NCBI GenBank assembly: GCA_002633005.1
Contig: NMRA01000347.1
Span: 278,304-342,303, forward strand
Source of the DNA: Phoronis australis
Taxonomy: Eukaryota > Animalia > Phoronida
DNA length: 64,000 bases
Direction of reading: 5' to 3'
Shown here: one piece after another, positions 33,896 through 58,029 of the stretch
Position numbering within the stretch: position 1 is the stretch's first letter
Layout of the letters: every line of letters begins with the position of its first letter
The notes under the pieces: generated by a model
The model's input: the letters and a program-made list of their open reading frames with translations, nothing else
Told to the model about the DNA's origin: nothing
The model's database searches: none
Translations under genes and position numbers: made by a program

Positions 33896-34185
33896 ATGTG
33901 CGACGGGACGTTTGTAACTTTACGCTTATTGTTATTCTTATTTAGTTGAACATGTTCAGTTATTCTTATGCTAATGTCTTTGTTGATTCTCAGTGCGCCT
34001 TTGTTACGTGGGCATGCGGGCGCGACTGTACATGTATGTGTCGGGCACTTCGCTAGCGAGAGAAGGGTGGTTTCCTTCCTTTGCCTACATGAAATTGATC
34101 GTTATCATGTGTTAATGAACTGAACGTATGCCTGATGAGGTGAAATACACATTTTTGATGCTCAGCGGAGACTTGCTCTGTTACA
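33896..34185 (-). repeat. About 290-bp dispersed repeat (inverted copy)
   Basis: Matches 3421-3710. Confidence 0.85.
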
Positions 34186-35394: not shown

Positions 35395-35495
35395 TTAACC
35401 ACACGTGCATTGACCGGTTGAATTACTGCAGATGGGTTTCAATAGCTCGCTGCCACTATTTGGGTGGTAGAAAACAGTGCACTTCGAATCAACAC
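35395..35495 (-). CDS. Copy B last coding exon (MG8 end + anchor), stop TAA
   Basis: SKCTVFYHPNSGSELLKPICSNSTGQCTCG* (cf. SCTRFYHP...KLC...CRCAE). Confidence 0.88.
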
Positions 35496-38400
35496 CTGTG
35501 AAACAGGACAAAACGAAACTTTGGTAACACCCCAACAGTCCTAAGAAGGGGTTTCTAGATGTGAGATGATTGTGGTGAGTCTTCCAAGCTCAACAAGCAA
35601 TAGGTGAACTAACTGAAATTCGGTCACAAAAATCAATTAAATGTGAACGCGATTTGGGCCTCGTTTTCATCACAAATCAACAGCTTTACTTTTACAACAC
35701 AGATAAAAATAGGCATTATGTGAATATCTTTTTGTAATACATAATATATCTGAAATCTAAACTAGTTTTAGATCGCGAAAACTTTCGAAGTCCGAGGTAA
35801 ATTACATTTTAAAAGTTAATTTTAAATTGGCTGGTAACCAAAATGAGGCACGCACATGGAGTCAACCGTTACAGTGTCTTCTTTAAAAGGAACACCTGAC
35901 CGACAAGCACAAAGACATTTCTAACCAAATTACCTCGGCCTAACCAGTTAATAGCGACAGGCTGAGTCTTGCCGATCCTGTACCGTTGTTGGATGAAAAA
36001 TTCGACACATACCTCCCTGCCACGCGGAACCTGCAACAGCGGTGAGTTAACTACTGTTAGCCTAGAACACTACATAATGTGAGGCGATAACGAAGGGTCC
36101 TCGCTGGTATGCCAGGACTTACGCGTCTAACAATTCGAAAAGGGGGCACAGGTTTTGAAAAAAATCTCAGCGGTGTAGGTCGTAAAGTCGGCATTTTTAA
36201 AGTGTACACACAACTGGGGACAGAGGGGATGGTTCCTGTCCCCTTAAACCCGCCTTTGCTTGGACTTCCAAAGTAAAATTCAGGTTGTCAATGGAAAGAA
36301 CAGGACTTCCGATATCAAGGACGGACTTTAATTTGTAAATGACGCGCTAGAAATGGGAAAGACTAGGCAATCGGTGAAAATCAGGTTGTATGTGTACACC
36401 GTACTTTTTATATCTTTCTTTATAATAGCGTAATTTTCGTCACAGGCTGTCGTAATTTCGAACAAAAATCTGAACGATATTATTTTCATACAGGCTTGCA
36501 CGTTGTTACTGTGTACACTGTAATCCGTGTAACTTCAGTTGCAGGTGAACTGTAACTCTAATTGGAGATGTAGCAGTACAAGTAGAATGAAATTAACATG
36601 ACATTATATTTCGGGTATGCTGTGGATATTTGACATCGAATCTTCCCTCTGACTAGTCTTCCAAAATACGTTATTGAGCAGCAGCTCTGTGACAAAACTG
36701 CTTTAAATGCTTTTTCTACACTTAGGACCAATGCAGCATGGGAAACCTTACCTTCGACAGCTGAAGTACGATTGTCCTTGAGGTAATATGGTAATTCATG
36801 ACAAAAGTGGTCGAGTTGCATACAATCTGGAATTTAAAGCCAGGAACGTGAAGTGAATATATATTTCTATACTCCTAACTGTGCTAATGTATAGCAGGAT
36901 ATATACAAAAATGCTGATTGGTGACCTTTGCACTAACGACTTACCCTGCAGGCTCACACTGACTGCATCATGAACTGTTATTCCCAGCAAGTCTCGACAC
37001 TTACTGGTCACCGTTCAGTGATTTAGGGTGCATCACTTTCGCCACAAAACTCGTCCTTAAAAACATTTGACAATTTTCAACCAACTTCATATTCATGTCG
37101 TAGCTATATGTTGTGTTTCTATAAAACGACAAGCAATAACATACCAGACGATCTAAAGATGCCTTCATCGGCTCAAATCCGCTAAAGAGACCGACGTCTA
37201 TCTCGTTTTCTCGACTGACCAGAAACCTGAGGGAAAACGGAAGACAGTTTGTTCATGAAACATGCTTCAGGCGGCTAGGTTCAAGCTAGCCTACTATACA
37301 TAACTGCATGATACACGTGAAACCCCATTACTAACCGTTTATCTTTGTGACGAAGCAGGAAAACGTTCTATTTTTTCATCCGTTCACTAAATATGTAGAT
37401 ATAAGGATATCAACACAATTCACTAAATATGGAGCTACCAGGATATCAACACACTTAACTAAATATGTAGATATCATGATATCAACACAGTTCACTATTT
37501 ATGTAGATATCAGAATATCACCACGCCTTTCCTTTTTTGATAATAAGACATTGACTTCATTTACCTGTTCTTAATTAATCAAATTCGCGAAGTTTTTAAC
37601 AATACATCATATTCTGGTTTCAATGTATCTATTGATAAAATTTGTCATTTTTCCATACGACAATAGAATGTAGATGTAGTACTTTCAACGTCACACGGAC
37701 GTAGACGAACTTTGGACCGAATACGCATGCTCATAGCACAGAGCACTTAGCACAAAGAACTGCTGCACCTTACGCCAGTTCACGATTTCATAAAATGTTT
37801 CTGCTTACTTCGTGCAAACTCGCAATTTTGAAACAACTCCAGAACTCCTTCCCCATGTTAGAGATCCACGCACGCTCCGGCGTGATCGATACATGTACTC
37901 GGCAGATGGCACTCTAGTATCCCTACGGCAAGAATAGTCTTCGTCGTCAAATCTGAAATTGCACGTCATTAAACTGTAGGTCGAAAAACAAAACAAAGGT
38001 TGGTGTGAGAAACTTAACCTCTAACGACATGTGTGGTTGGTTGCGCGTGCGAATGCCTGATGTCAAAATAAAATCCCTTTATTGCATTTCCTTGCCTTCA
38101 AGACAAACGAAATCAATTAGTCACGTTAGTACATCTTTCCGTCGATGTTCAACAGACTACAAAATCGCTCGCGCTATTGCGATCGAAGGAAAAGAGACAT
38201 AATGCAACCACTCGCTGGTTCCCTGTGAGTCCGCTAGGGGATAGAGAACACGCGGGTATCATTAAATTACCTTTGAGTGTTTCTGATTGACTGGTCGAAT
38301 TCTCAACAGCTGGCGCTTTATGTAAACAAACTGGTATGACTGATGGAAGTGTAAATGTGGAAATAATTTGTGGTCTGTTGTACAGGCAAATCGGTGCTTA

Positions 38401-41400
38401 ATTCATGTTCAGAAATTTGGGGCTGTGTCTTTTCGGAGTGCATCTTTCTAATGTTGCTGACTTTTGTTTACATTGCTGTCCAGTATTCACTCAGTAGACC
38501 TATGAATAACACATCGGTTAAATCGGCCAGATGTGTGTGTGCATTGTATGTGCTTCAAGCACGCGCCTATTAAAAATTACTGCAGAAACGAAATATTTTC
38601 TGTCACACCACTTGCACGACAAGGCTAAGCCATTTTTTTTCTTTTTTGTAAAGCTACCCAATGACTGCCGAGGTTACAAAAGGCGAGCTGCTGATTTATA
38701 CACGAAGGGTACGTGCGAGAATGCAACCACGGAACGACCCATATAGTGATATTATACACATAAAAATGAGCCAATCTTCAGGTTGATGTACCAGGTGTTT
38801 TTGTACGATATGGACAGATTATGAAGTTAAAACTCGTATTTTAGAATCAATTATTCTCACCCTCAAACCCCGAGCTACCCCACTGCTATGCTAATATAAT
38901 TTTTAATAACATTAGAGTGAGTTTATGTAGAAATCATGTAAAACATTTTAATTTAACACAATTCAAGTGAAAAATTAGTCTTGTGGTGTTCATAAAAATT
39001 TAGAATGCTTGCAATCGTTGACATGTTGATTTGACTTTGTTTTTTGAAACAAAATGCATTTTACAAAAAGAAAATGACCACATTGTTAACAACAAATGCA
39101 AAAGGTATCCCGTTGATGACACGTGACTCGATGTACTCTTGTCGCCATCTGCTCCGATACTGATGCACAGGATTTCATCTTCGTTTGTTTTTATTAATAT
39201 AACCTTTAGTAAACCTCTCAATTTCTGCTCCATGAATATTGTATTGGGAGACCTTTAAAAAACGATTTTTACAAAATTGAGCAACTTGAAATGCGGTGAC
39301 TTTTGGAATACTTCCTGTTTGAATGTACATGTAGATGATAATTACAGACTGAGGAAAATTGAAGTTAACACACAGCTGGATGAGAAGACAAAAGCTATGG
39401 CTCACGAAGCGATAACATTTTCAGACAAAAGGGACTTCGGTTCTTGCAAAGAATCTCGTGATTGCTGGAGACTAAACTTGGTGAATAAAATGACAATCCG
39501 TGGAAAGTCAGCTTGTATAGATCCTGGTCTCAACAAATAACGAATTGTCAGTGCTTCCAAGACGGAAAATCACATCTACAGTGTACTGTATGTTGACTAC
39601 GGGACAATGTGAGACTGACTTTGCTACTGAAAGTGATCTGAATCAAATATTAATTCTTGTGATGAAAAGAAGGTTATCCGCTTTCAGAAAACTCACCGTG
39701 GGATTTTGTCCAGGTCTCGAGGTATCCTAAATTCCTCCAAAGTCACATTAGTTGGAAAATTACACGACGTGGCGTTCTTGGAAGCAGGCCTTACCTGAAA
39801 ATTACACCAGCATTAGTGTTTTTACGTACTGGAAGGCGTCCAAACGTGACCGAGTGACTGATAAGTTGAAGGACCAGTGAAATAAACAACCTCTCCCGCG
39901 TACAAAACCAAAAGAGTAATAAAGACAAGAAACCCGATTTTCTGAGATAATCTTCAGGGGAGAATCGGAACAATGCAAAACCCGAGGTTGCATTCCAAAG
40001 CTCTTCTCGTGGAGCCAAACCACATGACAGAGTATTTTAAGCGTAAGCCACCGGCGTTGACTTCAGCGATTATTTGACTATTTGTATCGGAATGTAAAAG
40101 CGTGTAAAAGACTGCTATATTCATCAATAATCCCCAATGTACATGTACATATTTCTTTGTGGGAATGCCAAAAAAGGTCCATGAAATAAGATTTAGCCAG
40201 CACAGTTTGAAAACGCACAGTATCTCTACTGTAGCGAAAATAATGTTAAGAACAACTTACTAAAACGTTGAGCTTTTTCAGTATCTTGTCGGAGGATTTT
40301 GTAGCGGATATAGCGATCACTTTAATGGTGTGTATACCGACATGTAGAGGCACAATAGGGAAGGTCACAGTTTCAGATTTTCGTTTTTTAACAGTGACAG
40401 AAACCGGCTTGCTTGCTTCCCCAGATTTTAATTTTGCACACACGCCATGACCAACGATGGTGTACAGATGTACCTGAAGCGATAAAGATATCATTCAAAA
40501 ATTGTTAATGATATACGGAGACTTAATCAAGTCATTTTCATCGCCTCTTCTTTAACCCTCATCATTTCAAACCTTGCCTTTACGATTAGCACCACCAAAG
40601 TCGTCGTCATTGTCAGCATCAACAACATCATTTACACCAGACACCTGTGGAAGTAAGCGATATTGGGGTGGGGCACAATATAATTTGACTACACTGAAGT
40701 TGTGTCCCCTTTTGGTCCCAAGTTTCAGATTCTTAATTCGCGACACGACTTAAACTCTCTGGCCGAGGCCAGTTTCGTGATGACCGGGGCTTCAACCCTC
40801 ACGGATGCAGCCACCAGAAACGTAGGTACACAGATCTCTCAACGACAGTTCGAGCCTCAAGGGTCATCGGTAGCCCTGAGCACGTGACATGATAGAGGTG
40901 ATCAAAGTATATTAGCAAAGGCCCTTCTATGGGTGGGCTGCAAAATCCAAAGTAAACGGCGATTACATGAATTATTTTGTAATGCAGGTGGCGATGGAAT
41001 ATCGGAATGGAAGCTTCGGTTGTAAATTCGTCAGGGAGGTCTACTTCATTAGGGCCACGTGGTGAACATACAGCGTGCACTCTAGGCTGTCCAGTGTACA
41101 AGGCCGTAGTTAGGGGCTGTCAAGAAATTTCCTGTTGATATGTGGTTTTTAAAAAATGAACTCCTACAAAAATGCCTTGGACTGGTCCCCCAAACAGAGA
41201 ATCATCAAACACTGGTAGTTGTCAAATGTTCTCTAACTTTTCATTTTTGCTCTATCTGTTTTTCGCGATTGCCCTTGCTTCCGACCTACGCATATGACAG
41301 TTGCCACAAAAGCTTTAGAGCCACGCCTTCAAATTCTTGGGAGTGCGTACATGTACCTTCGCGATTCGCCGTTTCTGCATCTGCGATTACAGAATGACAG

Positions 41401-44400
41401 TGGAGGAAGGAGGCGCTCACACTGTCTCCCCCCTCACCCTCCTACGCCTATGGCCATTGTACATGTATTTACCTTTGACAGCAGTGGGTGACGTTTCATG
41501 CACCTAACGCCTTTGACACATCTTAATTTAGTTGTGAAGATATTTGACACCATTGACGCAGGCTGGAAAAACACAGCTACGTAAAGGTCATCGGAAAACT
41601 CACCAGTAAATCCACTTTTCCATAGTTAAATATCGTTGCTCTGACTTCGACTTGTTCGTGTTGGATAATTGAATGAGGTAAGGATGCTTCTATGAAAAAT
41701 TCTTTGTAAACCTTGATAGTAGTCGTTTCAGCCACACAAAAACCGGAGTCCTGGTTGATACCAAATGCTTGTACATGCCACGTAGTGATGGAGTCGGGGA
41801 CCGTGGTACGAAAGGTGTACCTACGCTGCGATCTGCAACGAAGCAAACTAAACCTATAGTTCTTTTCCATTCAATAGTTAAACAGGAAATCGATTAATTT
41901 ATTATTTAAAACTGTTTTTAGCTACCAGAAAAATGAAAAAGAAACTAAGCCCGGCTTAAATTCACGAAATCGCTCCCGTGTCCTTTACAAGGGCGAAACT
42001 ACACAGATATCGAAACTATAAGAGCAACTCATTATAAGCTTCACAGTTTATTGAGTGTGGCCAACTTTATCAATGCAAATTCGAAAAGGTGAGCATGTAG
42101 ATGTATGCATTGCCTTTAACGTAAATTTCTGGCTCATTCGGCAGAAATGCATGCTCGGTTAAGTGCAGTTATGCTATAAAATCGTAAAATGCTACGGTTA
42201 AGAAATAAATATTGACAGCTACTTGAACCGAGGAGAAAACTCTACAAATTCCGAGTAAAGATTCTTGATTTGACGATTTGCAGTCACGTATGAAACTGGC
42301 CACAGGTTGTTCATTTGTAAAAATAGACACGACTGAAATGCGGTCCGTACTGTCAACACTTAACTGGTGAGATCACGCGGAGACTTGGATGAGCTCACTA
42401 AATTCACACACAACTACTAAATTCGCAGACAACTAATTATTTTGCAAATCACAACTACCCTCTCCGTGTGAACAATGTCTCTGCATCACCTTACCCGGTG
42501 TCAATCACTTTGTATATCCACGTTTCGGTGAAATTTTGACGGCCTTGGAGTTTGTGGTTGACATCCTGTAATTTTGGTATATCTTCAAACGTGTAGGAAC
42601 TGTCAGAAGCACGACCCATACGGCGACCTGGTCCACTAGGTGAGCGGCTTGCTGTAAAATGCGAAACATAGTAGAAACAAGGCGTTTCATGAATTTTATA
42701 CAGAGCATAGATGGGGCGAGTGTAGTTTGTACGATAGCCCATATCAGAAAATTACTTCATTTCTGCCTACTGTATGTTAAACTTTAAGACCAACAGCCGA
42801 TATTGCTCACGAAACGGTGTTTTCAGAATTTTCGCCTTCAGTCTTCCACTGCGACAATTTTTCGTCTTAAGTCGTAAGTTTTATGTAAATGTTCATGAAA
42901 CAGCCCCCTTTCCGTAGTGTTTTTCTTCATGTCGAGGTCATAATAGATCTCAATTTTTACATCCTTTCTTTCAAATTCGATTCAGTTCCTCTCTTACATG
43001 TATAAAATTTGTCTGAAAATTTTCAGATCTGTTTTGATCTGTACCGACATACTGTACGTGTGACAGTATTTTGTGGAATTTGTGATTGACACGAAAGCAC
43101 GCAATCTCCATAGAAGCGGGACATGTAGATGAATGTTGACAAGTGTCATTACTCCGCAGATATCAACATGTCACTCAATGTACGGCCAACCTAACCTCAG
43201 AAATTTGTCTAACGTTGTTTAAAGATAACGAAGGTATCGCAAACGTATTAAGTTTCCAAGCAAGGGCATACACTGTAGGTTACAGGGCAACTCGGCACAC
43301 AGATACCTAACAAACTGATACAAGATACCAGTATGTAGTAGCAATGAGTGAAACAAGGGCATGTAAACCAAACCAGTTTAGTTATACAGGCTACGTATTT
43401 ATTGAGCAGAATGAACAGAGGAAAAAGTGCAGAACAAACCTTGAATGTTAAAGTGGTCAACAATTTTAAACGGTCGAAGTTTGATTACGTTCAAAACATA
43501 ATCTTACTTGTGAACGACGGATATTACTTTTTGTTTTGAGGAGTCACCAGTGTATTTCAAAAATTGTTATTGTCAAATTGTTGTCATGAGCGCCCTCATT
43601 GTTACAATAGGAAACTCGTAAAATTATATATTTGATGACAGTGCACATTTCTTACCGTGTCAAGAATGGTACGAACATGACACAATTTGTGTTTCAATGC
43701 ACGCAGTAAATGCAACTTGTCAAATAACTTTGGCAAAGCTTTGATTGCGATATGTTGTGGTTTAATCTTTCATATTGTAAACGGTAGGGATGGTAGTGAT
43801 AAATGAAATGAGTTGTGAATCAAGAGGTTGTAACACAATAGATAACTTGATTGAGTCAACGAATATGTTCCGAGATATCCCAGATTTCAGTGTGGTTTCG
43901 TTTCAAGAATCTGACCATTGTTAGCGATCTCGCAGGTAAATGTACGTGTGCCGGTTGCTGGAGCAAAGTCGCCTAGAGGGGGATATTGACCGGGTTTCAC
44001 GAATTTCGAACTTCACGAAGTATTCTTTAGTCGCCTATCAGTGTCTCTTCTTGGGACCACTTACGTCACTCATTGTGGAAAGATTGACGTCGGCGGACCC
44101 TCGTGCGCTTCACGTGCTGGCCCTAGACGCGGTTACTAACGCAAAGCATAAAACATACCGTCGGACTTACTTTTGCTCCTACGGCTACGGTGACGGCTAC
44201 AGAGTGGCACTCTTTTCTTCTTAAAGCTCCCAATCTCGATACAGTTCGGACTTCGGACTCTTGTGTTGGATAAAACTGTCAGACCCATGCTCTGAAAACA
44301 GATGTCTTGAAATTTACATAGGCACGTGTTCGTGAAAACACTAGCACTCCTATTGTAGCATGTTAAAATAGTTTTAGTTGCTGCTGTCCTATTATCCAAA

Positions 44401-47400
44401 CAATTCAATAAATTACTGTATTGTATTTATTATATTTATTGTATTTATTGGTTCGTGATTAGCATGTCCATTCACGTCTATTACCTGCAACACGTCTTCG
44501 CTGCTCAAACCACCACCAATTCCATATCCGTTGTCGAATATTTTCATGCTGTTCAACACATTCGCGGCTGTCATTCTGTACTTGTGATTCATTAAATAGA
44601 CGGCTTGATCAACAGCCAGTATCGCAACTTTGGTTCGGGGGTCAGCTTTCACTGTTACCTTGACGAAGTCACTCGGTTTGTACGTCTTCGACTTCCGCTT
44701 TCCAGTCATTGGCTTGACGATGACCTTATAATTTAAACACCAAAAAAGCGCATAGTCATTATTTGTTATTTGCTTACGACAGTTTTGCAAGAGCTTAGCC
44801 ACAGTTGTACCGGTTTATTCTCAGATGTGAAGTGTATTTCAGTGAACTATTCCTTGAACAAACCAAAGTTTGCGGGGAACATTCGTCTGGAAGCAAGCAA
44901 CCTACCTTGGTTTTACATCTGCTTACAACATCGATCAGTGTCGAATCGGCCACGACTTCGTCTCCATGTAAATAATAGACCAATAAACGAGCAGATGGCG
45001 ACATTGACGCGACAACGGGAATCGACAAGTTGAGCGGGAAGAATGGTTCTTTAACAACTGCCGTATGTATCGTTTGGCCCCCGGATGTAACCATGTAAAC
45101 CAACGTGCTCACATCGAACGCCTTTGTTGCTGTGATTTGAATTACTGCGTTGGTTCCCACCTTGAAAAAAACATCTCATAATCAGAGGCGGATTTAGGGG
45201 GGAGGGGGACAGGGAGCCATGACAACCCCTAAAAATCGTGTAGGTTCCATCTGGCAGTTCGAAGGTGCAAATACATGTACCTGATGAGCAAAATCCTGGC
45301 TATTACTCTGTCCTGCCCCCCCCCCAACTCAAAATATTGGGTCGGCCCCTGGTGATACCCCCAACTCAGCCTGTCCTCTATGTTACCATAAATTTATAAC
45401 TCCGAGGATATTTCCAGTTCCAAGAAGCACTTTAGATACGTGTTCTAAGCTTCAAATTTCCTTTAGTCGTTGCAAATCATAGTGTTTGTTAAGAATAATG
45501 CTGGGTTTGTGCGTCATAACAAAAACGGAAGGTTGACTGAAGTGTGCCTCAACCAGCTAGTTTGTACTTCCGGTAAGCATATAGCCTAGTTGATTCTTCG
45601 CCTGCATAGTGGTACATCTTCCAGACGAAGCCGTAGCCTGAAGACAATACAGAAAAGAATGGTCTGCATATTCAACAATAACCCAGACCAACCCCACTTT
45701 TTGTCTGAAGACGATTTTCCTTCGAAAGTGCCGGCTTGAATGGCATTTGAAGCTTTACGATCTTCACTACCGGGTAGCCTACATCAATCCTTCCATAAAG
45801 AAAATATAAATTTAAGACTTCACGCACGCAACATTCTTTCAATTCATCATCTCCCGTTTTCTGATTTGTTTGTGCATCTACTGGGTTAAGATGTGAAATG
45901 ATCAATATTTGATAAACCACAGCTCCCTATATGAGGTGCAATAACGCTAAATCGTCGCCGACCGCCCGGAGTTGGTATATGGTGCAACTCCTGACGATCT
46001 GCGCTCTACAGAAAATCACAGTTCTACTGTGAGTCTACATCAAAGTTTGATAGAAGAAAGAGGTTCTACATGTACTTGCCGCGCAATCTGCAGGTATTAT
46101 TATCTCTTTTATGACACCCAATGTGTGACTGGACAAAGCCTTTTCAAAATATTGTAGATAAGATAGTGGAGCGTGAGTCCCCTGAGGTCCCTGTCAACTC
46201 AGGTATCAGCGTAATCTAATGATTAAACTGCTAGTATTCAGTCCAGTCACGAGCGACAAGAAGACTGGTTTGACATCTGACAACAAGACAGTTGAGACGC
46301 TGGTAAACATGCATATGTGAAAGATATTCAACTGTAGATCAGATACCTCAGTGGGCCGTTTTCTGATGGGACAGCAAGGGGACGATGCATGAATATAAAA
46401 AGAGAGATACGTGTAAATAGATAATTAGATTTATTTGGCGAATTGTTCTTAGTGTCTTCAAAGTTGACAAAACCTCTGAACAGGTGTTTGGGACAAATAG
46501 GTCTAGAATGGTCATGTTTTGCCCACTGCCTTAGCGCTAACTGCTGTATCTTTTCTTACCATGCCGCCGAGAAAAACTCAAAGCAAACGCTGTAAATCAA
46601 ATACTGTCTACCCTATTGAAAAAGAAACGAACTAACTTTGACATCATTCGGACAATCAGACTAAAACGTTTTCTTACCGACACAGGCTGTTGGGTTTTTA
46701 CCGTTGCTTGTAAAAAGCTGTTGCTGTGTGAGAAGGCTGACTTCATGTTATACTTCTCTGTCAAAGGCACTTCGGTTAATGTCGACACCTAACAAAAGCA
46801 ATGATTTACGTCACTCTACGTGCATGGTGCAGTTTATGACCGGCTAAGTATTGGAAATATAGTGAAGATAGATTCAATGGTGAACTACGAGCAGAAGAAA
46901 TTCAATGTATTGAAGTAGATTGCAGTTAACAGTTTGAAATCACGGAAAAGTTAGTCAAAGTTTACCCAATTCAGGCGGGTGTTCAGTAGACGCCAGGACC
47001 TACGCTAGGACCTACATGTAGCTAAAACCTAGTCAAAGTCACGTGTTCTCATTTAAAATGCACGGCAATATCTCAAATAATCTCGCGAAGTCTTGCTTTT
47101 TAGCGAGATCCTAGCGTTACTGAACGGGAGGCAGGTTTCTTCGTCTATAGATGGTGTTCATGTACATGTACCTGTATTGTGGTCATAATGGCGTTGCTGG
47201 GTGGAGTGACGATAGCGGAAGCGTGTCCCTTTTCATTGGTCAAAACTTTGGTGGTAAAGGATGACGGTAAGGCGTCATCATTTGAACTGCGGAAGACAGT
47301 AGTTATGCGAATGTCCGTTTTCTTTGGTTTGCCGGTCAAATGCCTCACGTCAATCTGAAATACGTATGAATCGTTGAAGTCAAGTTCCAACGTAAAGACG

Positions 47401-50400
47401 GTTACATAAACTTTAGAACTATCATTTATGTACTAAATTGGTAGCGTTTTAAGGAAAAAAGCAAATTGAGTAACTGTTGTCCCGTAAGCATACCATTTGG
47501 GGCTTGTCGGGGACGCATTCCAACGCTCCGTTGCCTTTTCTACAGATGTGGAGTACAGTGCTAAAAATCCAGTGCAAGCTGTACATTATTCCGTGTTCCA
47601 TAAATGATCACACAACGTAAAGTACAAAAACTGTAGTAAGTACTGCCTACCTCAACTGGAAAGGACAACCCAGGTTTGAAACAAGGGCGTATTCTTGAAA
47701 ACGTGACAGTGTATGGTGCAGTGACAAATTTGGTGTAACTTGATTTGCCAATTTGTTTGATTCCCGATCCGTGGTCTCGCACTGTCGCCTCAGCATATAA
47801 TTTGGCACCCTCCAGAAACCAAAAGTCTGCACCTCGTCTCCTAAGTCTACGTGTTGAAAATTTCGTTTTAAAACGGCCGTTTGTCATCTGAAAATTTTAA
47901 AACAAAGCACATTGAATGTTTTGAAGACAGGAAGTAAATAAATAACGTTCTCGGTGTAATGGTATTGATTTTGGTTAGACTTTACGTAGTTCAACGCCTC
48001 TGTGCCCAAAAACCTTTTGAATATTTGACTGTGAACACTATGATAAACACACGTGACCCTTGTTTGTACATGTAGAAATCTACACACGCTTATGGTTTAA
48101 TCTATTACCGAACTGAACCTTTTTAAAACACGAATGCAACTTAACCCTCAAGATACTCGAAACAGTATATCACCGATTTAATAAAATTATATTAAATCAC
48201 CAATTTATCACTTAACGAAATCAAACAACAGAGATGATTGAATCATAAAATTTGATCTTATCATGATTTGACACAACTCAATCCCGGACTTGGAGATGTG
48301 TGACGTCATTACGTGAACTTAGAACTTACCTTGCCAGTCTTACGTCCTAAAATCTTCCGTCCAGTGTCTGTCTGCACAACGAAACGTACGTCCACTGGCC
48401 CATTAACTTTTTTCCCAAACACGTATCTAAAATGGTCGATAGTCAACGTTGAAAACATGTCATTTTCAGTGGTGCAATAATCTTAGTACCTACAAACTGC
48501 GTATAATTGGACATGCGCTAGGGGTCTTTCTGTACATGTATGTGTTTATGATGCAACCACTGATGAAAGTTGTCGTTTGTTTTGTCGCAGTGTCACCGTC
48601 TCCTCGTTTTGTTTGGAGTTAAAATTTTTGAAGATTTGTGTCGTAACATTGCTGGAGACAATGAGGATGATTTTTTTAATCCAAATTATGTTATGTAAAA
48701 CAATACATCTAGAGCTAGAAGCACGAAAACAGACTTAGGTCTTTACTCTCTCCTTAAGTCAGTCGACATAATATTGCGCATCATGATAGGGTGTCTTCAG
48801 TTAACAACGCAAATCACAGGAAAATGCGTACATGGGCCATTTCCGAAATCGTAACCGTTTTTTTTTTGCGTTGGCTAATCCTGTTCAACACTGAAGCATA
48901 TTCTTGAGACACTGATGGTTTCTAAGCATTTGTTGGCAACGGAAATGGTACATGTACTCCTTTAACGTTAGAAAGAGCAACGGCAAGCCGCAAGGTTGGG
49001 TCTATCACACAAAACACTTGTCACGGTAAAGAGTATTATGAGACCAATGTTATGAGAATTTTCGTTTTGCTCCATCTAGTAAACAGAGCGAAATGGAGAT
49101 TTACATAACATGGTTTGTGCTCTAGTTGTACAGTGTTGAATGTGTCTTAGCCGCCATTACTTCATCACAAATCTTCTTTCAACCTACAGACAGAGTGTTT
49201 TAAGCAGTAAGAAGAAAACGTCCATGGGAATGCTTCAAGAGAATTAAACAATTAGACACTGGTTCACAGGTTTAATTATTAGTTCAACATGCACTGCACC
49301 GCGAGTGAATGAAGAGGCAGTGTTTTAAAAGAAAGTGCAAAACTCTGCAAATGATTTCAATACTCACCGAGCTTGAACTTTCACTCTGACCCCTTTAGTT
49401 GTGTTCAATATATGCTTGGGAGTTTTCACAGTCACGGAAAAGGTCGGAAGCACTGAAAATTGAATTAAATGGAGTTCATGCAACTTCACGGAATTTTCCG
49501 AAAGTCAAAGCTGGGGTCATTTTCACGCACCTACATGTACATGTATGAGTTTTGGTAATCGGTAAAGGTGGGTGGCCCTGAGCACAAAACAATCGCATGC
49601 CCTGGGACAGGTTTGTAATTTTTGTACTCGAAACGAACTCGAAATTATTTTGGACGTTTTTTTCTGATCTCTTTGTGCAAATTAAAGAAAAGTGGTTAAC
49701 ATACTGTGCTCGAATACATCGTGGTTTATGGATATGACTTGCTAGTCCGAGACCCTTATATTCGAGCTACAAACTCAAGTAAAAACTCGAAATTTCGAAT
49801 TCAAACTCAAACTTTCAGCCCTATTGTTGGGTTTATCGACTGCAAACTAGGACTAATAGTCATTATAGCATGTCCATCTGCATAGAATAATGGACACTTA
49901 TCTTAAGTTCGCACAAAAGCAGAGTAGGAAATGCCAAATATAATTTCGAGTTCCATTTTGAGTAAAAAGGTTATAGACCGGGTGGTGTGGACACAGGAAC
50001 ACGTTGTCCACAACAAGATTAAAAAAATCCTGGAAAAGCATTTCCTACATAATATATGACCACAACCCAAAAATTGCCTTTGCATTATAAATATTAAAAA
50101 TAAAAGGGTGATCCCTTCATACAAGGTTTTGCTCAAACTGTTCGCGCATGCAAGCATGAACCTGGACACAGGCGTAGATTCGAATGCGCATGTGCCTAAA
50201 ATACAGCCCGTATATATGTCATGAGCTCGTCGTACACTGTAATTTAAAGTCTCTTGAAAATAAAAATACGGCTTATGAGTTTCATCATGCCGAATGGAGA
50301 AGTTACGTTTTGAGCATTAGTCACCCTTTAACATTTCCCTAAAATCTTTTCCAAGTCGTAGTTACCGTAATCATTCACTTCAAATTGCACAGATTCTTTC

Positions 50401-53400
50401 AGTGTGTAATTCTTCCCATAGTGCACCGTGATCCACCAATTACCCAAATCAGAAAATGCCGGAATCGTCAAGCTCGTCGAACAGAGTCCATTTGGGGTTG
50501 ACACGCCAGCCCTACTTGCCTCGTAAACGATTCCTTTTGGGTCCTGTGAATACAAGAGCATAAAGATACATTCCACAACAGCGCCATCACACTGTCGCGT
50601 AAGTCGGGGTTACTAAATGAATTCTAGGCACAATGCGTATGGTTTTCGTGTTAGCATTCTATATTTGGAATATTAAAAACCAAGTGTAATGACTGAGGCG
50701 TAAAACACGTCTTGTATGTGAAAGTCTGGGGAACAGTGACGGATTCCTTTTATTTTGTTAGTTTATTTGTATATTCAGCATATTCACGTCTTCTTAATTG
50801 TCTTGCTGATTCTTGCTGCTACCAGTTATCGTGTTTTGTTAATTTTTGATGTATTTCCAATTAATTTCAAACACATTCGTTAGCTCACACTAATGGCCGC
50901 TACCCAAATTACGTCAAACATTACAGAACCGAAGACAAAATTCAGCGGGAAATGTTCCTTACCAAAATATCGATTCGAACAGGAGCATCTCGGGGCTTCA
51001 TCAGGTGGTCCACTTGTATAATTCGGACTTGTACTGCAAAATTACATAAATAGGGCAACATGTAATAAATAGGTAACAGAAAGAATTAACCTGTAAGTCA
51101 ATTCAAAGCTGACCGCAGAGGCCAACCGAATAGAGGACAATTCTCAAGCTCGCAATTTTAAAGCGCGAGTTTCCTGTTGACGATAATGTTTCCAATTATC
51201 ATGCCTTTAGAGAAGTATGCATTTACTACTTTGATAAAACCAGACGGAATACATTTGGTCACAATGTAATCAGTCATGAGAGTTCATTACAGTTTCTGGA
51301 AATTGTAATTCGTGTTTTTTAATTTTTTTAAAATAAAGGAAACAAGCTTTAGCCAAGGGCATGGTCCTCTATACGTTCTCTCTCACTCCCTTGCACACAT
51401 TCACAAATAAGACCGAGCTCAAAGGAATATGAGGCATCTTTGTGCAATGCTCGAATGTCAGCCACATGAAGCCAGGATTTGACCAAGGTCTCTCAAGCCG
51501 GAGTCTGAAGTTCTAGCCACTGAGCCACACTGTATTTTTGAGCCTGTTTAACTTATTTGACTATTCAAATGAACGGCTGGCACACGTATCTGAAGGGTAG
51601 GTTTCGAAGTGTATTGTATAGAAAAGGTCAGGATTTCAAAAATAACATTACGGCGTTCTGTCGTTCAGTAACTTTTTCAGACGTGAGGGGTGCTGAACGT
51701 GCGATGACATCTGGCTCTTTTGTTAACTGCCCAGCTCAGTTTTTTGTCCCGTATGATAACAAGCAGGCCAATTATCTCCCAGGCTTCAAAGGAAAAGTAT
51801 GGTAGTTGCACGCTATTACCGAACGCGTATGAACACACAGTCAAACCCAATGCGTTGGTAATCCGTTTGGACATAATAAATTGTCTGGACTTCTGTTGTG
51901 GTTGGGCGATTTTGGTGATTCAAAAACGGAATATGATCAGCATTTGACGAGGAAGTCAGAAATGCTATTGGTTTAAGCTCAAATATGTTATAGCTTAGCT
52001 TTCATTTTTATCAGCCCAGCCCAGTCAGGCTAGATACGATCTGATCGGAGATTAGAGCAATTATCGAAAAAAACGCAGGCCCTCCAACCATGAATGCCAG
52101 AATGGAGTTAATCAGACGTTTAAGATATTGGCTACGGGTGTAAACTTCCCAACTTGTTGTTGGGCTATAGAATCGAACAAGTTGGTAGCAACGGGATGTC
52201 GCCGTCACGATGTAAAACAGATGCATCCTTTACGATTTCAAAAAAACGTCTGTCCCGTGACGAATTCACCTAAAATAAATAGGGTTCCGCTAGGTATAGT
52301 TGCTTTCGTATTTTGAAAATTCGGTGGAACCCTTAAGTTAGGCTACGCATTCGGTTATTCCGTGGGTTCAATTTCGGCCATCCATACTAAAACGAAGTCG
52401 TCGGTAGTTACACAGAACGACCTGCACAAACGTGGTCCTCGTCACCGGACCACAATTTGTTGCCTGATGAGAGTGTGCGATTATTTGTACTGCACAATCA
52501 TCTTCAGGGCAATGTTGCCCTATTTGGTGTTTGGCGGCAAATTCTCGATGCCCAGGATGTCATTCAACAAGTTATGCCTCACTATGTCAAAGCCTCAGAC
52601 CAGTGATGAACGTAATATACATGTAGTTTACTTATCAGTCAATCACACAATTAGTTGGTGATTAACGTGTTATGAACAACAGGATATCGTTTTATTTTAA
52701 CGAGAGGTCAAACAAACTGGACAACCTCTAGATACTGACTCGTTTTAAAAATAACTAAGTGAAGCGTCTATATTCCCATGTGAAACGTCTATAAACCCAC
52801 TTGAAGCGTCTATATATACCCATGTGAAGCGTCTATAAACCCACGTGAAGCGTCTATAAACCCACGTGGAGCGTCTATATACCCAGGTAAAGCGTCTATA
52901 AACCCACGTGACATGTCAAAGAAACCAAATTTTCATTTAGATCACTTATCGCTTTAAAATTTGTCTCTTTACTTTCTTGCTCAGTAGAGAAGTTATTCTA
53001 GGCTCTGCTTAAAACGACAGATCCGTAATTGGCTGAAGCCATTACAGGTCATCATGTTAAGCGTGGTTTAAAATGAGTTATGATAAACTATCAGCTCTTA
53101 CGCGCTCTAAAATCACTTATACTTTGAATAAAGAACAATTTGAGACAATTTCATGGAGCTAAGTAGTGGCTTTACTATTTTTGTGAGGGAAGACGTGTCT
53201 AGGGATTCGTGTACTTTGTTGTTTGTTATCCGGCAGTTTCGCTTTATGTCTCAGTAAATTATGAAACTTCTGCCTGTGTTTCGGTACAGTGAACAGTCAA
53301 CACAAACCTTGCTGACCAAGAGAGTATATCGGCTTGTCAGTCTGTATAAAGACCAGTCCATTTTGAGGGGTGACCAGGATCTCGACTTCTTTTTCAAATT

Positions 53401-56400
53401 GAAGTTCACTGGAGGCGCCCTTAGCTGTTAACAGCACGAAATGCTCTTCGAAGCGTCGTGTGTACAAATTGTTGGAGGGTGCCGTGATTTTGAGCTCAGT
53501 TGGAACTCCTGTAGGAAAACAGATATCAAAGTTTTACACATAGGTCGAGTCCTTTTGAAAATGAAGAAAATGAATCGATTTCAGTAGCACACCCATACAC
53601 GTTGGCACAGAAAAGAGGCACAGCCAAACATACCATATCCCTATAAAATCTTTGGCACAGCATAACCAAGAGGAAGGTGTTTTTTCATTGGCTATGCGAA
53701 TGAAGTAACAGTCGGTCGTTCCAATTGGTTGTTACGGGGGTGGATCACTATATTTTAACATGGTGTTATCCGCCGCTTTCACTGCAACTGCATTAATTAC
53801 TAGTGATGGCTTCCAAATTAAATTTGTAGGTTTATGATCATTTAAGATCACACTTTAGCAGAAGAAAACAGGACATGCATTTTAGCATTGATTCCACCAT
53901 TTGATTTAGACAGAGGGTGATTCTAAATTGAATTCTGCGAGGTGTCGTCGTACATTGCCACTCCTACAGTACGTTTGGCGTTGTAGAAGAGCTGGTCACA
54001 TTTTTGGTAGACAGATGAATAAAATGTGACGGCATCTTTTAAAATCAGAAGAGCAAAGGCAACTCCAAGTCGCCACCAAAGGTTTTTGATAGCCGTTTCT
54101 CTTACTGGTAAATACTTAAATCTTTTCTTAAAAAACTGCTTTTGAGCGGTCTCACGGAAAGCAGTTGATCCCATGTCAAAAGTTGTTTTGCAGTAATTCT
54201 TTGTGAGATGACTCGTGGCTAAGTTGGAGTGAGCTTCGTAGACTCAAGAATCTCGCGAAGGAAGCTTGAGTGACCACGTGTTTTGCTTCTAGTACAACTG
54301 CGATACTTCCCGGATTTTTACAAGCTTACTTTTTAGCGAGATTCTTGCGTCTACTGAACCTACGTCCAGTCTTGCCATATAGGCCCAAGACATTCGTTGC
54401 TAACAACACAAGTGGGGTAGTAATTTTAACAGTTTAGTCCATTTACTTTGCATAAGAACGATTAAAGCAGGACAGCCAAGGAAAGGAACTTAAATATGTA
54501 TAAAAAATAAGCACGATTGTGATACAATCAGCTCAACACTTGTCCCACTATAGATTAGAATAAAGTCGTCTAAAGGGAAGTTAGCCCTTTTCAAGTTTCG
54601 AAAACATTTTTCTTTACTAGTACCTACTGTGAGTGAGGATATGCCATATCAATATATGGAGCATGTGTGTGGGTGGCAGTACAATTGACCCACCCAGTCG
54701 CGAACACGTGGTAGGGGTCATTTTTCACGGTATTTGTTAGTGGAAGCTAACCACGACAAGAGAGTTTTTGCAGTGGCGTCTTCCTCCTCTGCCAGAACCA
54801 GAATCACATTTGGGCAAACAGGAAAGCCATAAATCCAAGCGTTATATTTTATAAAACTAAAAGGTATCGTGTCCAAACATGACCATACATGTATACATGA
54901 AATCTGATGTTTATAGTTTGGGTCACTTAGCAAAGTGGGCGTGTAATAGAGCGTGTTTAAAAACAAACAAACTAGCTGTTCATAGGGTGTGATATTGACA
55001 ATAATATTTCCATAGGTTGAACCAAGTCATAAAAACAGTCAAATTTCTGAATTTACGGGCATCACTCAGTTGTGGAATTTGAAACCATTCCAAACAGTTT
55101 CGTATTGCTATCGAAATTTTAAACAGAAATGTATTGGTGGGCTGACAATTTCTCCAGTTAAAGTGATAGCACATTCACAAAATACTGCATCCATACGCGT
55201 TGAATCTATCGAGGGAAATACGGCCGTGTAATAAAGTTTTCCTCTTCACCTCCCGCACTACTTTAACAGTGAGCTCTGACATGCAATGTTCAAAAGGTAG
55301 GTCGATGTCGACTCGACGTCGTTAGTCGGTTCGATCACCAATCTCAAAGATTTTATAGTATATATGCCAATCTTTCGGAAACTAGTTTAAAGTACATGTA
55401 ATACAATTATAGCAGTGTAAATAACGCTCAACATACAATCAGGTCTCAATCGTAACATCTGGAACAGGACTGTTAATTATATGGCAGTTCTGTCTCAGTT
55501 TTCATTTGCTAAATATTTTATCGTCTGCAACTCAGGCGCCGATTCCTCGGTAACTACGGTATAAAATATTGTTGTTTTTTAACTATTTTCAAGAGATGTT
55601 ATAAGTTCAATGACTGAAAAGTTTCCCTTGTTTTCATCTTTGTTATCTCTTTTCAAGAAATAACTCGTTACATTTAAAACTGTTTATTTTACTAGAGTAA
55701 ACTTGCAGCTTAACGCGAACGTACATACATATAGGACACCGCCACGTGAACAGTCTGGGTGAATTATTTAAAAAATCTGCGGAAAAAATGAAAGAAACTT
55801 AGGCATTAAACGTGTATGGAATAATTGCGGCCTCGGTCGATACGCGGAATAATGTCTCGTGGGATATCACTTTATGTATGCCTCTCTCGATACGTTTTGT
55901 GTATTTATAAGTGTTACTGGAAAGCAAAATTATTGGTTTTTCAAAAAAATCACTAAAATTACACAAGGTTTGGAACACTAAAAAGCTCAGCGTGTATGCT
56001 GATCATTCTACCTTTCTTGATTTGTTCCTGAATGGAACGTACTTTGTAAGTCGACCGTGTGCCTACATGTTAAGATACCTTTGATATTAAAACTGACATC
56101 GTGTCTTCTCATTTTTATTACCGCAGACAATCGAAAGTTTGTAGAATTTTAAAAATCAGTGTGAATATATACGATTTGCCCGAACAGCAGAATGTTTGAC
56201 CCAGATTAATTCATAACTGCATGTAAGACATAACTTATAAATACAATTGCAGATGTCGCGTTTTTTCCTTTTTTGGTGTGGGTATCAACAGAGCTAGTAC
56301 GTTACTAATAATATCACTGTGAACACTTTCAGAGCATGTGATTGGCTAAAGAGACAGCAAGAAGCGACACCTCTGCTAAATAGCAATAAATGGGCAACGG

Positions 56401-58029
56401 TGACGTCTCAAATATCAAACACTTGAGGATAAGCAGTAATTTCCGGGTTTGCAAAGAACAACTAGTCTATCATAAAATCTACGACCCCATTTACATGGAA
56501 ACAAGACCACGTGATTCGTACATGTTGCTATTAACGAGCGCAATTCCCGGTTGAGGGTTAATAACAGGAAAAGTAAACCGTCATCTGAAGGCTGGCGGAC
56601 TTTCACTTGCACTTTGCCTACTAATTGCCAGAGTACATGTAGGTACCATGTTCAAGTGTAGGCATCATGTGCAAGCATAGGCGCTAACGTGTGAGGGTAG
56701 GCACCATGTGAAAGAGAGTAATAAAGTTATTGCGCCTTCTGTCCTCTCGGTGTCGTCTGTCCCGTCTTGGTAAAAATACACTTGGGAATAAAAAAATAAG
56801 CTTAGTGTTCATTTAGTCAATAACTGGACCGCTTATGCCTCATATATTTTCGCAATACACCCATGTTCACAAAGGCAGCCAATTGGAAACCTATAGCTTC
56901 ACGAGTTTTAGTTGGCGACACTACACGTACATGTATTCACACGCGCCTTGTGGTTTTGTAAACACCGTGATAATTCATATCGTAAGTAGTTACATGTAGG
57001 CTCTTTAAGGTTAAAAGTGCTTAATTGTACTCGGAAAACAATCCCACACAATAGGATCACGCGGACTTTTTTCTAATGAACTAGGGCCCAGTTGCATAAA
57101 AGCTATACGCCCTATGGGAACAATGACGTAGCATTATCACGCGTCACGTTGGTTTTGTTGAACAATGCACCTTACGTAATGCAACAATCAAACTTATTCC
57201 GCGAATACCTTTTGAAGCTTTACGCAAATCAGCTCAGATGAACTGTTTACGGGGATGTATTACGTGTAGCTCTTTTACGATCACCTTGGCAGTTATTACC
57301 TGGCTGTATAAGTTGCTTCACGGGATCAGTACGCCACTTTCTGAACGGATAATCTTGAAGGTACAGTTTCAGCTGCACTGGTTCTGTGGCTTCAAAAATG
57401 GTGATAACAACACTTTCTTCGACATCAAATCGCAGAAATTTCGGAGCGGTGAGCAGATATTTGGGACTAAAAATATAAACAAAGCTTCGTCCATACGTTT
57501 TGTTAATGCGTGTCAACTTTTCGGAAAATAAAAAGAATTACAAATTACATTCGTCACTCTCCCATGGCCTGTACTTGTCAAGTCTTGCACGGCGGTACTT
57601 TTAATTGATTTGGGCATGCCTGCAATTCAGGCTATGGCTTTGAATGTCACACAGTGACACAGTGATAGTGCTTGATTAATTCAAAAAATAAGCCTACATC
57701 TTTCCGACTCAGGATTCGGGCCTAGCTGCATTTGCCTGACCCAGACTAGTTGTCGGTTGTTAAATTTATCTTTGATGGTAGGCCTGTTGTTAAAAAAGAT
57801 CACTGATCGAGTTGACTTCAAATGAAAAAGTTGTTGCCGGTACTAATTCTGTAGCAAGCAAACTCAAGCAAACAAACGTTTTGTTTTTAAAACTTCATGC
57901 AGGACATTGAGATATTCGACACAATGCAACCAAATCTACTCACCTCGCTGTTACTGACCACTGTGTTAACAGCAGACATATGCACATCGTTGGTGTTGAA
58001 ACACGAAATACTTCTTTGATAGATACCAT
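35395..58029 (-). CDS. C3: Complement C3-like gene, copy B (about 1,085-1,093 aa; MG1-MG8 + anchor; no ANA, CUB, TED or C345C detected)
   Basis: Exons 1-16 splice into 877 open codons with FIQTDKPIY, PDSITTW, GFCVAE and EQVEVRATIFNY. Five further exons give LRVCTK, IDVGLFSGF, IGKTQP, CTVFYHP and CTCG-stop. Only the MG7-to-MG8 junction exon is ambiguous. Confidence 0.85.
35934..36030 (-). CDS. Copy B MG8 exon
   Basis: VPRGREVCVEFFIQQRYRIGKTQPVAI (cf. CLAFKVHQ...IQPGAV). Confidence 0.82.
36752..36826 (-). CDS. Copy B MG8 exon
   Basis: IVCNSTTFVMNYHITSRTIVLQLSK (cf. ISKYE...LIIYLDK); phase 0-0. Confidence 0.75.
37145..37226 (-). CDS. Copy B MG8 exon
   Basis: FLVSRENEIDVGLFSGFEPMKASLDRL (cf. 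LDISMMTGFAP). Confidence 0.85.
37383..37526. repeat. Minisatellite, 36-bp unit x4
   Basis: TTCACTAAATATGTAGATATCAGGATATCAACACA(N) repeats. Confidence 0.9.
37809..37952 (-). CDS. Copy B MG8 exon with second polybasic site
   Basis: FDDEDYSC...YRSRRSVRG...KLRVCTK (cf. C3 ILEICTRY). Confidence 0.8.
39697..39726 (-). CDS. Copy B putative 30-nt micro-exon
   Basis: tttag/gtgagt boundaries; in phase 2-2 it reads IPRDLDKIPR. Confidence 0.5.
39795..39951 (-). CDS. Copy B putative MG7-MG8 junction exon (boundaries uncertain)
   Basis: Two phase 0-to-2 options: 39830-39951 (IISENRVSC...GCLFHWSFNLSVTRSRLDAFQ) or 39795-39892 (RLFISL...VIFR). Confidence 0.4.
40261..40473 (-). CDS. Copy B exon 16 (MG7)
   Basis: GVCA...VTFPIVPLHVG...DKILKKLNVL; ends phase 0. 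Confidence 0.92.
41604..41832 (-). CDS. Copy B exon 15 (MG6/MG7)
   Basis: VPDSITTW...GFCVAE...FFIEASLPHS...EQVEVRATIFNY. Confidence 0.95.
42495..42651 (-). CDS. Copy B exon 14 (alpha'NT/MG6)
   Basis: ...GRRMGRAS...RQNFTETWIY. Confidence 0.88.
44171..44291 (-). CDS. Copy B exon 13 (linker, beta-alpha site RSRR)
   Basis: SMGLTVLSNT...LCSRHRSRRSK; donor gtaagt. Confidence 0.85.
44485..44724 (-). CDS. Copy B exon 12 (MG6/linker)
   Basis: VAILAVDQAVYLMN. Confidence 0.92.
44906..45160 (-). CDS. Copy B exon 11 (MG5)
   Basis: MSPSARLLVYY...EVVADS..IDVVSRC. Confidence 0.92.
46678..46788 (-). CDS. Copy B exon 10 (MG4/MG5)
   Basis: ...AFSHSNSFLQATV. Confidence 0.85.
46981..47130 (+). mobile_element. 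About 150-bp MITE-like repeat with inverted ends
   Basis: GTTCAGTA(G)ACGC ... GCGTTACTGAAC; further copies at 19361-19500, 27388-27530 and inverted at 32901-33027. Confidence 0.7.
47172..47354 (-). CDS. Copy B exon 9 (MG4)
   Basis: IDVRHLTGKP...TNEKGHA. Confidence 0.85.
47651..47887 (-). CDS. Copy B exon 8 (MG3/MG4)
   Basis: ...LYAEATV...APYTVTF...FKPGLSF. Confidence 0.9.
48330..48426 (-). CDS. Copy B exon 7 (MG3)
   Basis: YVFGKKVNG. Confidence 0.88.
49368..49452 (-). CDS. Copy B exon 6 (MG3)
   Basis: [15 protein letters not shown]...VQAR. Confidence 0.88.
50366..50543 (-). CDS. Copy B exon 5 (MG2)
   Basis: DPKGIV...LGNWWITVHYG...FEVNDY. Confidence 0.9.
50963..51033 (-). CDS. Copy B exon 4 (MG2)
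   Basis: [24 protein letters not shown]. Confidence 0.87.
51400..51532 (-). mobile_element. tRNA-derived SINE-like head
   Basis: Minus strand TGGCTCAGTGG (A box) ... GGTCAAATCC (B box-like) at tRNA-like spacing. Confidence 0.45.
52759..52911. repeat. Minisatellite, about 21-bp unit x7
   Basis: GTGAAGCGTCTATAAACCCAC repeats. Confidence 0.92.
53308..53508 (-). CDS. Copy B exon 3 (MG1/MG2)
   Basis: GLVFIQTDKPIY. Confidence 0.92.
55190..55337 (+). repeat. About 150-bp dispersed repeat copy in intron 2 of copy B
   Basis: Matches 33065-33215. Confidence 0.75.
57300..57466 (-). CDS. Copy B exon 2 (MG1)
   Basis: SPKYLLTAPKFLRFDVEE...LQDYPFRK. Confidence 0.9.
57944..58029 (-). CDS. Copy B exon 1 (signal peptide)
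   Basis: [28 protein letters not shown]; donor gtgagt. Confidence 0.8.

Follow-up and report, generated by a model that had tools for sequence, protein, structure and literature searches.

The 64,000-nucleotide stretch of the Phoronis australis genome analyzed here (assembly GCA_002633005.1, contig NMRA01000347.1, positions 278,304 to 342,303 of the forward strand; hereafter the window) contains a complement C3 paralog, designated gene A, whose open frame encodes the macroglobulin (MG) core of the protein only. Gene A lacks the features of a functional complement C3, namely the anaphylatoxin domain (ANA) with its six cysteines, CUB and TED with the GCGEQ thioester motif, and C345C, and amounts to C3c minus C345C. 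The scaffold-only protein is very probably made, and a transcribed paralog of this kind may well act through its MG ring as an always-open, non-covalent immune ligand, a reading that is held here about as readily as it is doubted. Thioester proteins are defined by a CUB-TED insert on a macroglobulin ring, and the known reduced members have, to our knowledge, lost the motif, ANA or C345C, or shed TED by proteolysis.

Gene model and retained domains

All coordinates refer to the whole window, and the model of gene A was built from a six-frame reading of the window with splice-site checks. The gene runs on the minus strand from 58029 to 35394 and comprises 22 coding exons, 3,241 nt and 1,079 amino acids (aa). 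All 21 introns are GT-AG, the exon phases chain unbroken, and the frame stays open to a TAA at 35397-35395. An open spliced C3-type frame had been proposed in an original prediction made from the sequence; its counts of about 23 exons and some 1,090 aa are corrected here, and its observation that no N falls within the span holds, the three Ns of the window (6760, 25897 and 31172) all lying outside the gene. The joins between exons, including those of exons 13-14 and 16-17, are predicted from sequence. Five features described below had no place in the original prediction: gene B, the splice donor next to the stop, the candidate remnant of C345C, the replaced first LNK cysteine and the erosion of the MG8 lid.

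35394 to 58029, minus strand: gene A, a 1,079-aa scaffold-only C3 with signal peptide, MG1-MG8, LNK, alpha'NT and the first half of the anchor (gene model and domain searches).
57944 to 58029, minus strand: exon 1, predicted signal peptide at aa 1-28 (hydropathy peak of 2.4 near aa 13-22).
53308 to 57466, minus strand: exons 2-3 (57466-57300, 53508-53308), MG1 and the start of MG2 (Pfam MG1, E 3.4e-9; alignment).
50366 to 51033, minus strand: exons 4-5 (51033-50963, 50543-50366), MG2 (Pfam MG2, E 9.1e-5, below cut-off; alignment).
47651 to 49452, minus strand: exons 6-8 (49452-49368, 48426-48330, 47887-47651), MG3 and the start of MG4 (Pfam MG3, E 7.8e-4, below cut-off; alignment).
46678 to 47354, minus strand: exons 9-10 (47354-47172, 46788-46678), MG4 and the start of MG5 (alignment to C3-like proteins).
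44485 to 45160, minus strand: exons 11-12 (45160-44906, 44724-44485), MG5, the first half of MG6 (C554) and the start of LNK (Y624) (Pfam A2M_BRD).
44159 to 44291, minus strand: exon 13, the end of LNK and the beta-alpha site RSRR at aa 672-675 (gene model).
42652 to 44158, minus strand: intron 13, 1,507 bp, phase 1-1, the expected position of ANA, in which profile and segment searches found no ANA exon (no sense RNA in 43096-43759).
42495 to 42651, minus strand: exon 14, a short cysteine-free linker, an alpha'NT-like stretch and the start of the second half of MG6 (alignment; RNA cover not attributable to gene B).
40261 to 41832, minus strand: exons 15-16 (41832-41604, 40473-40261), the second half of MG6 (C766) and MG7 (C822) (Pfam A2M, E 1.7e-25).
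39795 to 40260, minus strand: intron 16, 466 bp, phase 0-0, the junction at which CUB-TED is deleted (alignment with the relative P0008, profiles; DNA contig piece 39796-41036).
37809 to 39794, minus strand: exons 17-18 (39794-39697, 37952-37809), a linker, the start of MG8 with C892 as its likely first Cys, the alpha-gamma site RSRR at aa 936-939, and C960 (MG8 profile).
35934 to 37226, minus strand: exons 19-21 (37226-37145, 36826-36752, 36030-35934), MG8 without the Met, Tyr and Y-x-Y-Y lid columns (conserved-column comparison).
35394 to 35495, minus strand: exon 22, the end of MG8 (C1052), the start of the anchor (C1069, C1076, C1078), TAA at 35397-35395 and a consensus donor after 35394 (gene model).

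In a Pfam run on 18 segments (17 exons and a candidate exon 23 described below), MG1, A2M_BRD (in two exons) and A2M were above the cut-off, MG2, MG3 and A2M_recep were matched only below it, and ANATO, TED and NTR were not found. Against solved structures, exon 15 ranks C5, C3 and cobra venom factor (CVF) ahead of alpha-2-macroglobulin (A2M), C4 and CD109. Among 74 long library hits, the best whole-protein match is a C3-like protein of Ptychodera flava (P0008, XP_070581805.1), with identity in two blocks of 33% over aa 10-916 and 36% over aa 948-1079. The MG8 profile covers aa 888-1057 at 66.7 bits, while exons 13, 17 and 18, taken singly, gave no alignment to relatives at the expected place above that of shuffled sequences.

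Both RxxR processing sites are kept (RSRR at 672-675 and at 936-939), as are the MG6 interchain cysteines C554 and C766, which are present in all 19 relatives compared. Every cysteine named in the original prediction was located, the pairs being C554/C766 (MG6), C822/C1078 (MG7-anchor) and C960/C1022 (MG8), with C1052, C1069 and C1076 in addition. The anchor resembles that of C3, CVF and C4 and is cut after its third Cys. The first LNK cysteine, found in 17 of 19 relatives, is replaced by Y624 both in gene A and in its tandem paralog, gene B. Hydropathy indicates no transmembrane stretch in the protein beyond the N-terminal hydrophobic segment.

Absent domains

At the position of ANA, about 16 cysteine-free residues separate the RSRR at 672-675 from the alpha'NT-like stretch, an interval that in P0008 takes up about 66 residues and includes six cysteines; gene A has no Cys at all between aa 669 and 765. 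CUB-TED, about 450 aa by comparison with P0008, is absent because exon 16 ends at the end of MG7 (aa 881, corresponding to P0008 925), where relatives run on into CUB, and exon 17 opens MG8.

Domain profiles were built from 39 full-length relatives and scanned over all six frames of the window, with reversed DNA as background. The best scores anywhere in the window were 6.9 bits for ANA (3.8 in reversed DNA), 1.0 for CUBa (2.0), 0.1 for TED (0.4), 1.9 for CUBb (2.4) and 3.9 for C345C (5.5), none of them clearly above background, and positive-control profiles in the same scan reached 56.6 (MG6b), 11.9 (MG8) and 9.8 bits (anchor). When exon-sized pieces were left out of the profiles, 65 of 69 TED pieces but 11 of 16 ANA pieces exceeded 7 bits, making this a strong test for TED and a weaker one for ANA. 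The two best ANA scores (6.9 and 6.3 bits) fall outside intron 13, and nothing resembling ANA was found in intron 13 of either gene A or gene B. No thioester motif occurs on the minus strand of the window, and 144 segments free of stops, taken from introns 13-17 and from 32.5-35.4 kb, matched no complement family. The claim that C3a, CUB, the thioester and C345C are missing is thereby upheld, with no profile clearly above background in any of the six frames and a stop at aa 1080. A 48-bp phase 1-1 candidate in intron 13, with two Cys and no counterpart in gene B, was not taken as an ANA exon.

Apart from these absences, MG8 itself is altered. At a threshold of 70% or more of 37 relatives, 27 MG8 and anchor columns count as conserved, and gene A keeps 15 of them as aligned (Cys, Gly, Leu, Phe, Gln-Pro and Phe-Tyr), as compared to 106 of 129 conserved columns in MG1-MG7. 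The structural cysteines of MG8 are retained; what is lost is a lid consisting of a Met (present in 32 of 37 relatives), a Tyr (36/37) and the tyrosines of a Y-x-Y-Y motif (32, 33 and 31 of 37), and MG8 carries two short deletions. The lost columns correspond to human A2M M1378, Y1418, Y1452 and Y1453 (mapped through the library protein P0111, counting from the ends of the matched range on human A2M), which are described as residues of the A2M thioester pocket (bioRxiv 10.1101/2022.05.10.491262); a TED-MG8 shield is likewise described in TEP1 (PMC3464232). The MG8 surface has changed in the manner of a domain long without TED, and shows coupled decay once this partner is gone.

An assembly artefact, whether a collapse of the CUB-TED (and ANA) exons or a false join of two paralogs, would account for such a model, and the repeat-rich tandem locus could favor one. 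At the end of intron 16, two contig pieces of a DNA run (X1) overlap by 14 letters only, and none formally bridges that point. That such models can arise is seen from P0110, a library model of 410 aa in which MG7 likewise passes straight into MG8; P0110 keeps ANA and C345C, has no beta chain and was read as a fragmentary model, not as the same architecture. On the other side, a single X1 contig piece of 1,241 letters, with one difference, spans 39796-41036, taking in exon 16 and intron 16 up to its penultimate base, and read depth is flat at 40-67 over 39112-43095. The eroded MG8 lid makes an assembly collapse unlikely as the source of the CUB-TED deletion, as a collapse would leave the MG8 residues untouched. 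Two copies whose introns can be aligned both lack ANA, and C345C exons are missing from the 16 kb downstream. An artefact is accordingly regarded as very improbable.

Transcription

Three RNA runs with the same species label (X5, X6 and X7) were examined over 33800-53700, using about 18-19% of each run. In repeat-free exon bins the cover is almost only sense, with a depth of about 2-22 reads in X5 and X6 and of 0-6 in X7, and two intron-only bins have no sense reads. Reads at 45017 carry the letter of gene B. At exon 14 the depth is about 5-7 in both X5 and X6, for which gene B cannot account at the 90% threshold. The transcripts there accordingly stem from gene A itself, from an allele diverging from it or from a third copy closer to it.

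Ancestry and relatives

A tree of 881 columns of the retained domains, with 27 rows that include four CD109-type rows and no true A2M row, places genes A and B inside C3/C4/C5 with 100/100 support relative to the CD109-type rows; FastTree agrees, and an approximately unbiased test rejects joining them to the CD109 rows (p=0.035). By descent, as judged from these alignments, gene A is a member of the C3/C4/C5 subfamily, in line with its original designation as a C3 paralog and not a member of A2M/CD109. Genes A and B are sister to a C3-like protein of Tubulanus polymorphus (P0019, XP_074654266.1; 97/88) on a long stem (0.89), and their exact sister is uncertain owing to long branches.

Among library proteins with both MG6b and MG8, 87 of 88 have TED (39 of them were used to build the profiles), and in a separate set all 24 hits carry PF07678. 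Word-index searches of proteins, made with exons 15 and 11, returned no scoring relative among 5 and 84 candidates, respectively, which is weak evidence that gene A has no close annotated ortholog. An atlas search returned A2M-domain clusters only. An encoded C3 without CUB-TED was not found in the literature searched, which left subscription journals mostly outside and did not include the supplementary domain maps of PMC8960428, which may bear on novelty. That report describes 13 domains in invertebrate C3-like proteins and some paralogs without the motif, ANA or cleavage site, not CUB-TED loss (PMC8960428). Fish have c3 copies without ANA or with a short C345C, and incomplete c3 copies are common there (PMC7768046), while a nemertean is described with two complete C3s (PMC9835746).

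P0008 and P0019 share with gene A MG1-MG8, both RxxR sites and the MG6, MG7-anchor and MG8 cysteines, and unlike gene A keep ANA, CUB, TED with GCGEQ, and C345C. The gastropod type I C3-like proteins and sea bream C3.1.6 and C3.1.7 are also C3 paralogs without ANA, but they keep CUB-TED, and at most their thioester motif is altered or their C345C shortened (PMC8960428, PMC7768046). Insect TEP1 (PMC3464232), CD109 and A2M likewise have neither ANA nor C345C, but these proteins keep CUB-TED and the TED-MG8 interface, whereas gene A has an anchor and both RxxR sites.

Gene A was originally likened to C3c and CVF. Mature CVF (PDB 3FRP, 3PRX) keeps CUB and C345C. Like the predicted product of gene A it is a C3 homolog of three chains whose mature form has no TED, but it derives from a full-length precursor of 1,642 aa and forms stable convertases with Bb (PMC6064732), whereas gene A is predicted to be unable to bind factor B. 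Human C3c (PDB 2A74, 2ICE) shares the MG ring with LNK and alpha'NT, the absence of ANA and TED, and the receptor surfaces on MG1-MG6. Unlike gene A, it is a cleavage product of factor I and is not encoded as such, and it keeps C345C, since it differs from C3b essentially by TED (PMC10518620); the lid of MG8 is eroded in gene A. The likeness therefore falls short, gene A being more reduced than both: it is also without C345C in comparison to C3c and without CUB and C345C in comparison to CVF.

Tandem paralog and C-terminus

The second copy, gene B, begins at 19121 and runs past base 1 of the window.

541 to 19121, minus strand: gene B, 718 open codons in exons 1-14 (intron alignment with gene A; gene model).
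10962 to 19121, minus strand: gene B exons 1-7 (19121-19033, 18505-18339, 15215-15015, 14631-14561, 13136-12959, 12067-11989, 11058-10962).
541 to 10517, minus strand: gene B exons 8-14 (10517-10308, 10031-9849, 8721-8611, 7441-7187, 7008-6769, 5676-5550, 688-541).

The introns of both copies align and gene B shares the ANA-less exon 13-14 junction. Over exons 1-14 the identity between the two genes is 73% at the protein level and 85% in coding DNA, with synonymous divergence (dS) of 0.21, nonsynonymous divergence (dN) of 0.15, intron divergence of 0.23 and dN/dS of 0.74 (bootstrap 0.59-0.97). The alignment has no stops and all seven gaps are whole codons; neutral simulation gave about 15 expected stops with 0 of 500 runs stop-free, and about 48 frameshifting indels would be expected at the intron rate. 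Differences are also rarer at family-conserved columns (19/139 vs 134/470, p=3e-4), while a test of differences in the hydrophobic core was not significant (p=0.15). Because stops and frameshifts are absent despite the neutral expectation and conserved columns are spared, both frames appear to be kept open by selection, if weakly, in exons 1-14.

Several side observations concern the differences between the two copies. The LNK of gene A has C654 and C668, and its MG3 (exon 8, 47887-47651) has a basic RRLRRR loop with an extra RxxR at aa 309, all absent in gene B. Exon 13 has two close same-phase donors in both copies (near 44170 and 5560), the second just upstream of the modeled donor, and the linker after RxxR may accordingly come in two lengths. 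Intron 13 of gene B is 4,861 bp long against 1,507 bp in gene A, lengthened in part by a retroelement remnant with a zf-RVT match (1822-2717, minus strand). Intron 2 of gene B holds an inverted 75-bp fragment of exon 5 (16185-16257, plus strand) that matches gene A better (93% identity) than gene B (81%), which hints at a third copy or at sequence transferred later out of gene A.

At the C-terminus, the stop of gene A sits where relatives continue C-A-E-G, with a consensus donor one base later, and C345C appears to have been lost through this stop beside an intact donor. A possible last exon lies behind it.

34385 to 34539, minus strand: candidate exon 23 with a VEWWP motif, resembling the last C345C exon (downstream of the stop, preceded by an AG acceptor, with 50 open codons that match the exon 22 donor in phase; ATTAAA at 34295).

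A motif scan that tolerates frameshifts, designed after the VEWWP motif had been seen, ranks this candidate as the best minus-strand site at 14.5 bits (the next independent one scores 8.0), with one plus-strand site at 16.4; searches of Pfam and PDB and the plain C345C profile give it no significant score. It is likely a decayed last C345C exon now in the 3' untranslated region. Because the intervening C345C exons were not found within 16 kb downstream of gene A, the absence of C345C does not depend on the stop being real.

These features bear on the possibility that gene A is a duplicate that was disabled recently or is decaying, with gene B or a third copy perhaps functional. The position of the stop one nucleotide ahead of a donor that is still intact, the in-phase candidate exon 23 that follows, the short MG8 deletions, the dN/dS of 0.74, the few reads identical to gene A and the frequency of incomplete c3 copies in fish (PMC7768046) would all fit such decay. 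Set against it are 1,079 codons without a stop or frameshift, retained cysteines that have family partners, exon 14 RNA that does not come from gene B, and a branch since the duplication that is shorter for gene A than for gene B (0.089 vs 0.21). Decay is considered improbable on balance; in that event the interest of gene A would reduce to illustrating how domains are lost when C3 expands in tandem.

Proposed function

Without ANA there is no trigger and no anaphylatoxin, and without TED no covalent tagging; factor B also needs surfaces of C345C and CUB. The earlier claim that the protein can neither opsonise covalently nor build a convertase is firm in its first part, as a thioester is impossible with no TED and no motif, and is in its second part a prediction from domain loss. 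The surfaces of C345C and CUB also serve properdin, factor I and factor H (PMC4451739), and with both domains lost these surfaces are gone as well. What remains is the ring. Receptor sites have been located on the MG ring of C3c (PMC10518620, PMC4451739), where CR3, CR4 and CRIg bind (PMC10518620), and the conservation pattern of gene A is compatible with an MG ring fold and with receptor binding.

In the scenario favored here, a C3 duplicate would have lost ANA before the duplication that gave genes A and B, the CUB-TED exon block would have been lost in frame, and C345C would have been lost in gene A by exon loss and a stop. The product of gene A would be secreted and cut at the two RxxR sites into three disulfide-linked chains. 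Having no trigger, thioester, C345C or CUB, it would neither tag surfaces covalently nor hold factor B, and its remaining MG1-MG6 surfaces would bind integrin-type and immunoglobulin-type complement receptors, bridging to phagocytes. For this bridging role, which is proposed by analogy with C3c, acceptance and doubt are close to balanced, with doubt if anything slightly ahead. More tentatively, scaffold-only C3 proteins may have arisen in this lineage as a small family that is diversifying, encoded always-open rings that serve as non-covalent immune ligands or brakes.

Two other roles are conceivable. The protein could restrain the complement of its own host as a brake or decoy, by taking up the MG4-MG5 face through which convertase and substrate dock or by sequestering regulators. 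The MG5-MG6 exons are the most conserved between genes A and B (nonsynonymous proportion, pN, 0.08-0.09), there is no ANA to release, and blocking MG4-MG5 hinders substrate access in human C3, as with compstatin (PMC4451739). The exons of MG3-MG4, however, differ the most (exon 9, pN 0.26 and synonymous proportion, pS, 0.14; not significant, p=0.10), a pattern that fits a varying partner better than a fixed self partner, and such a decoy is thought unlikely. Still less likely, the protein could have been co-opted for secretion in mucus, gland or matrix with no complement role left. Every catalytic and amplifying module is gone, the stem branch is long (0.89), and the first 650 aa are very basic (net charge +35, isoelectric point 9.8) compared to -23 to +12 in five relatives and +9 in gene B; yet both processing sites and the interchain cysteines are kept, and no other gene in the window indicates a gland cluster.

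It should be noted that a number of observations weigh against a receptor ligand encoded by a maintained and transcribed gene A. The receptor data come from human C3c, which is at best about 30% identical to gene A. Most exon reads differ from gene A, and at exon 19 reads without the non-gene-A letters number 4 of 13 in X6, 2 of 5 in X7 and 0 of 13-18 in X5; no exon-junction reads were seen among the 15 of 117 joints listed, all of them in repeat-rich bins. The X1 DNA run may be the assembly's own source, which would make its agreement with the window consistent rather than independent. The dN/dS ratio is close to 1, and the selection test is limited to exons 1-14 and does not extend to exons 15-22 or recent decay; the 3' half of gene B lies outside the window, so that its CUB-TED region is not covered. 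The MG8 deletions and the missing first LNK cysteine could also mean decay, and the stop next to an intact donor looks recent. Of the combination that was originally named as evidence of a pseudogene, no expression with a dN/dS near 1, the first half sits poorly with the sense RNA and the ratio is indeed near that value; the stops, frameshifts and neutral divergence of a pseudogene are not seen in exons 1-14.

Should there be such a family of scaffold-only proteins, selection would be acting on a function that the C3 ring has by itself, and an MG8 without its lid would provide a natural test that the lid residues only guard the thioester. As a natural minimal C3, gene A allows for asking what the ring does alone in receptor binding, convertase docking and target recognition.

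Other features of the window

At base 37166 all RNA reads and the X1 contig carry another base than the window (changing M982 to I), probably an assembly error or a private allele. A 24-codon acidic AG-GT stretch in phase 0 within intron 15 (40645-40574, minus strand) has no family match and was omitted from the model. The roughly 14 kb between the two genes (19200-33800) consist of repeats and transposon-like fragments, the longest frames tested there having no Pfam match. Just upstream of gene A lies a frameshifted LINE-type retroelement (61057-64000, plus strand) with endonuclease and reverse transcriptase matches.

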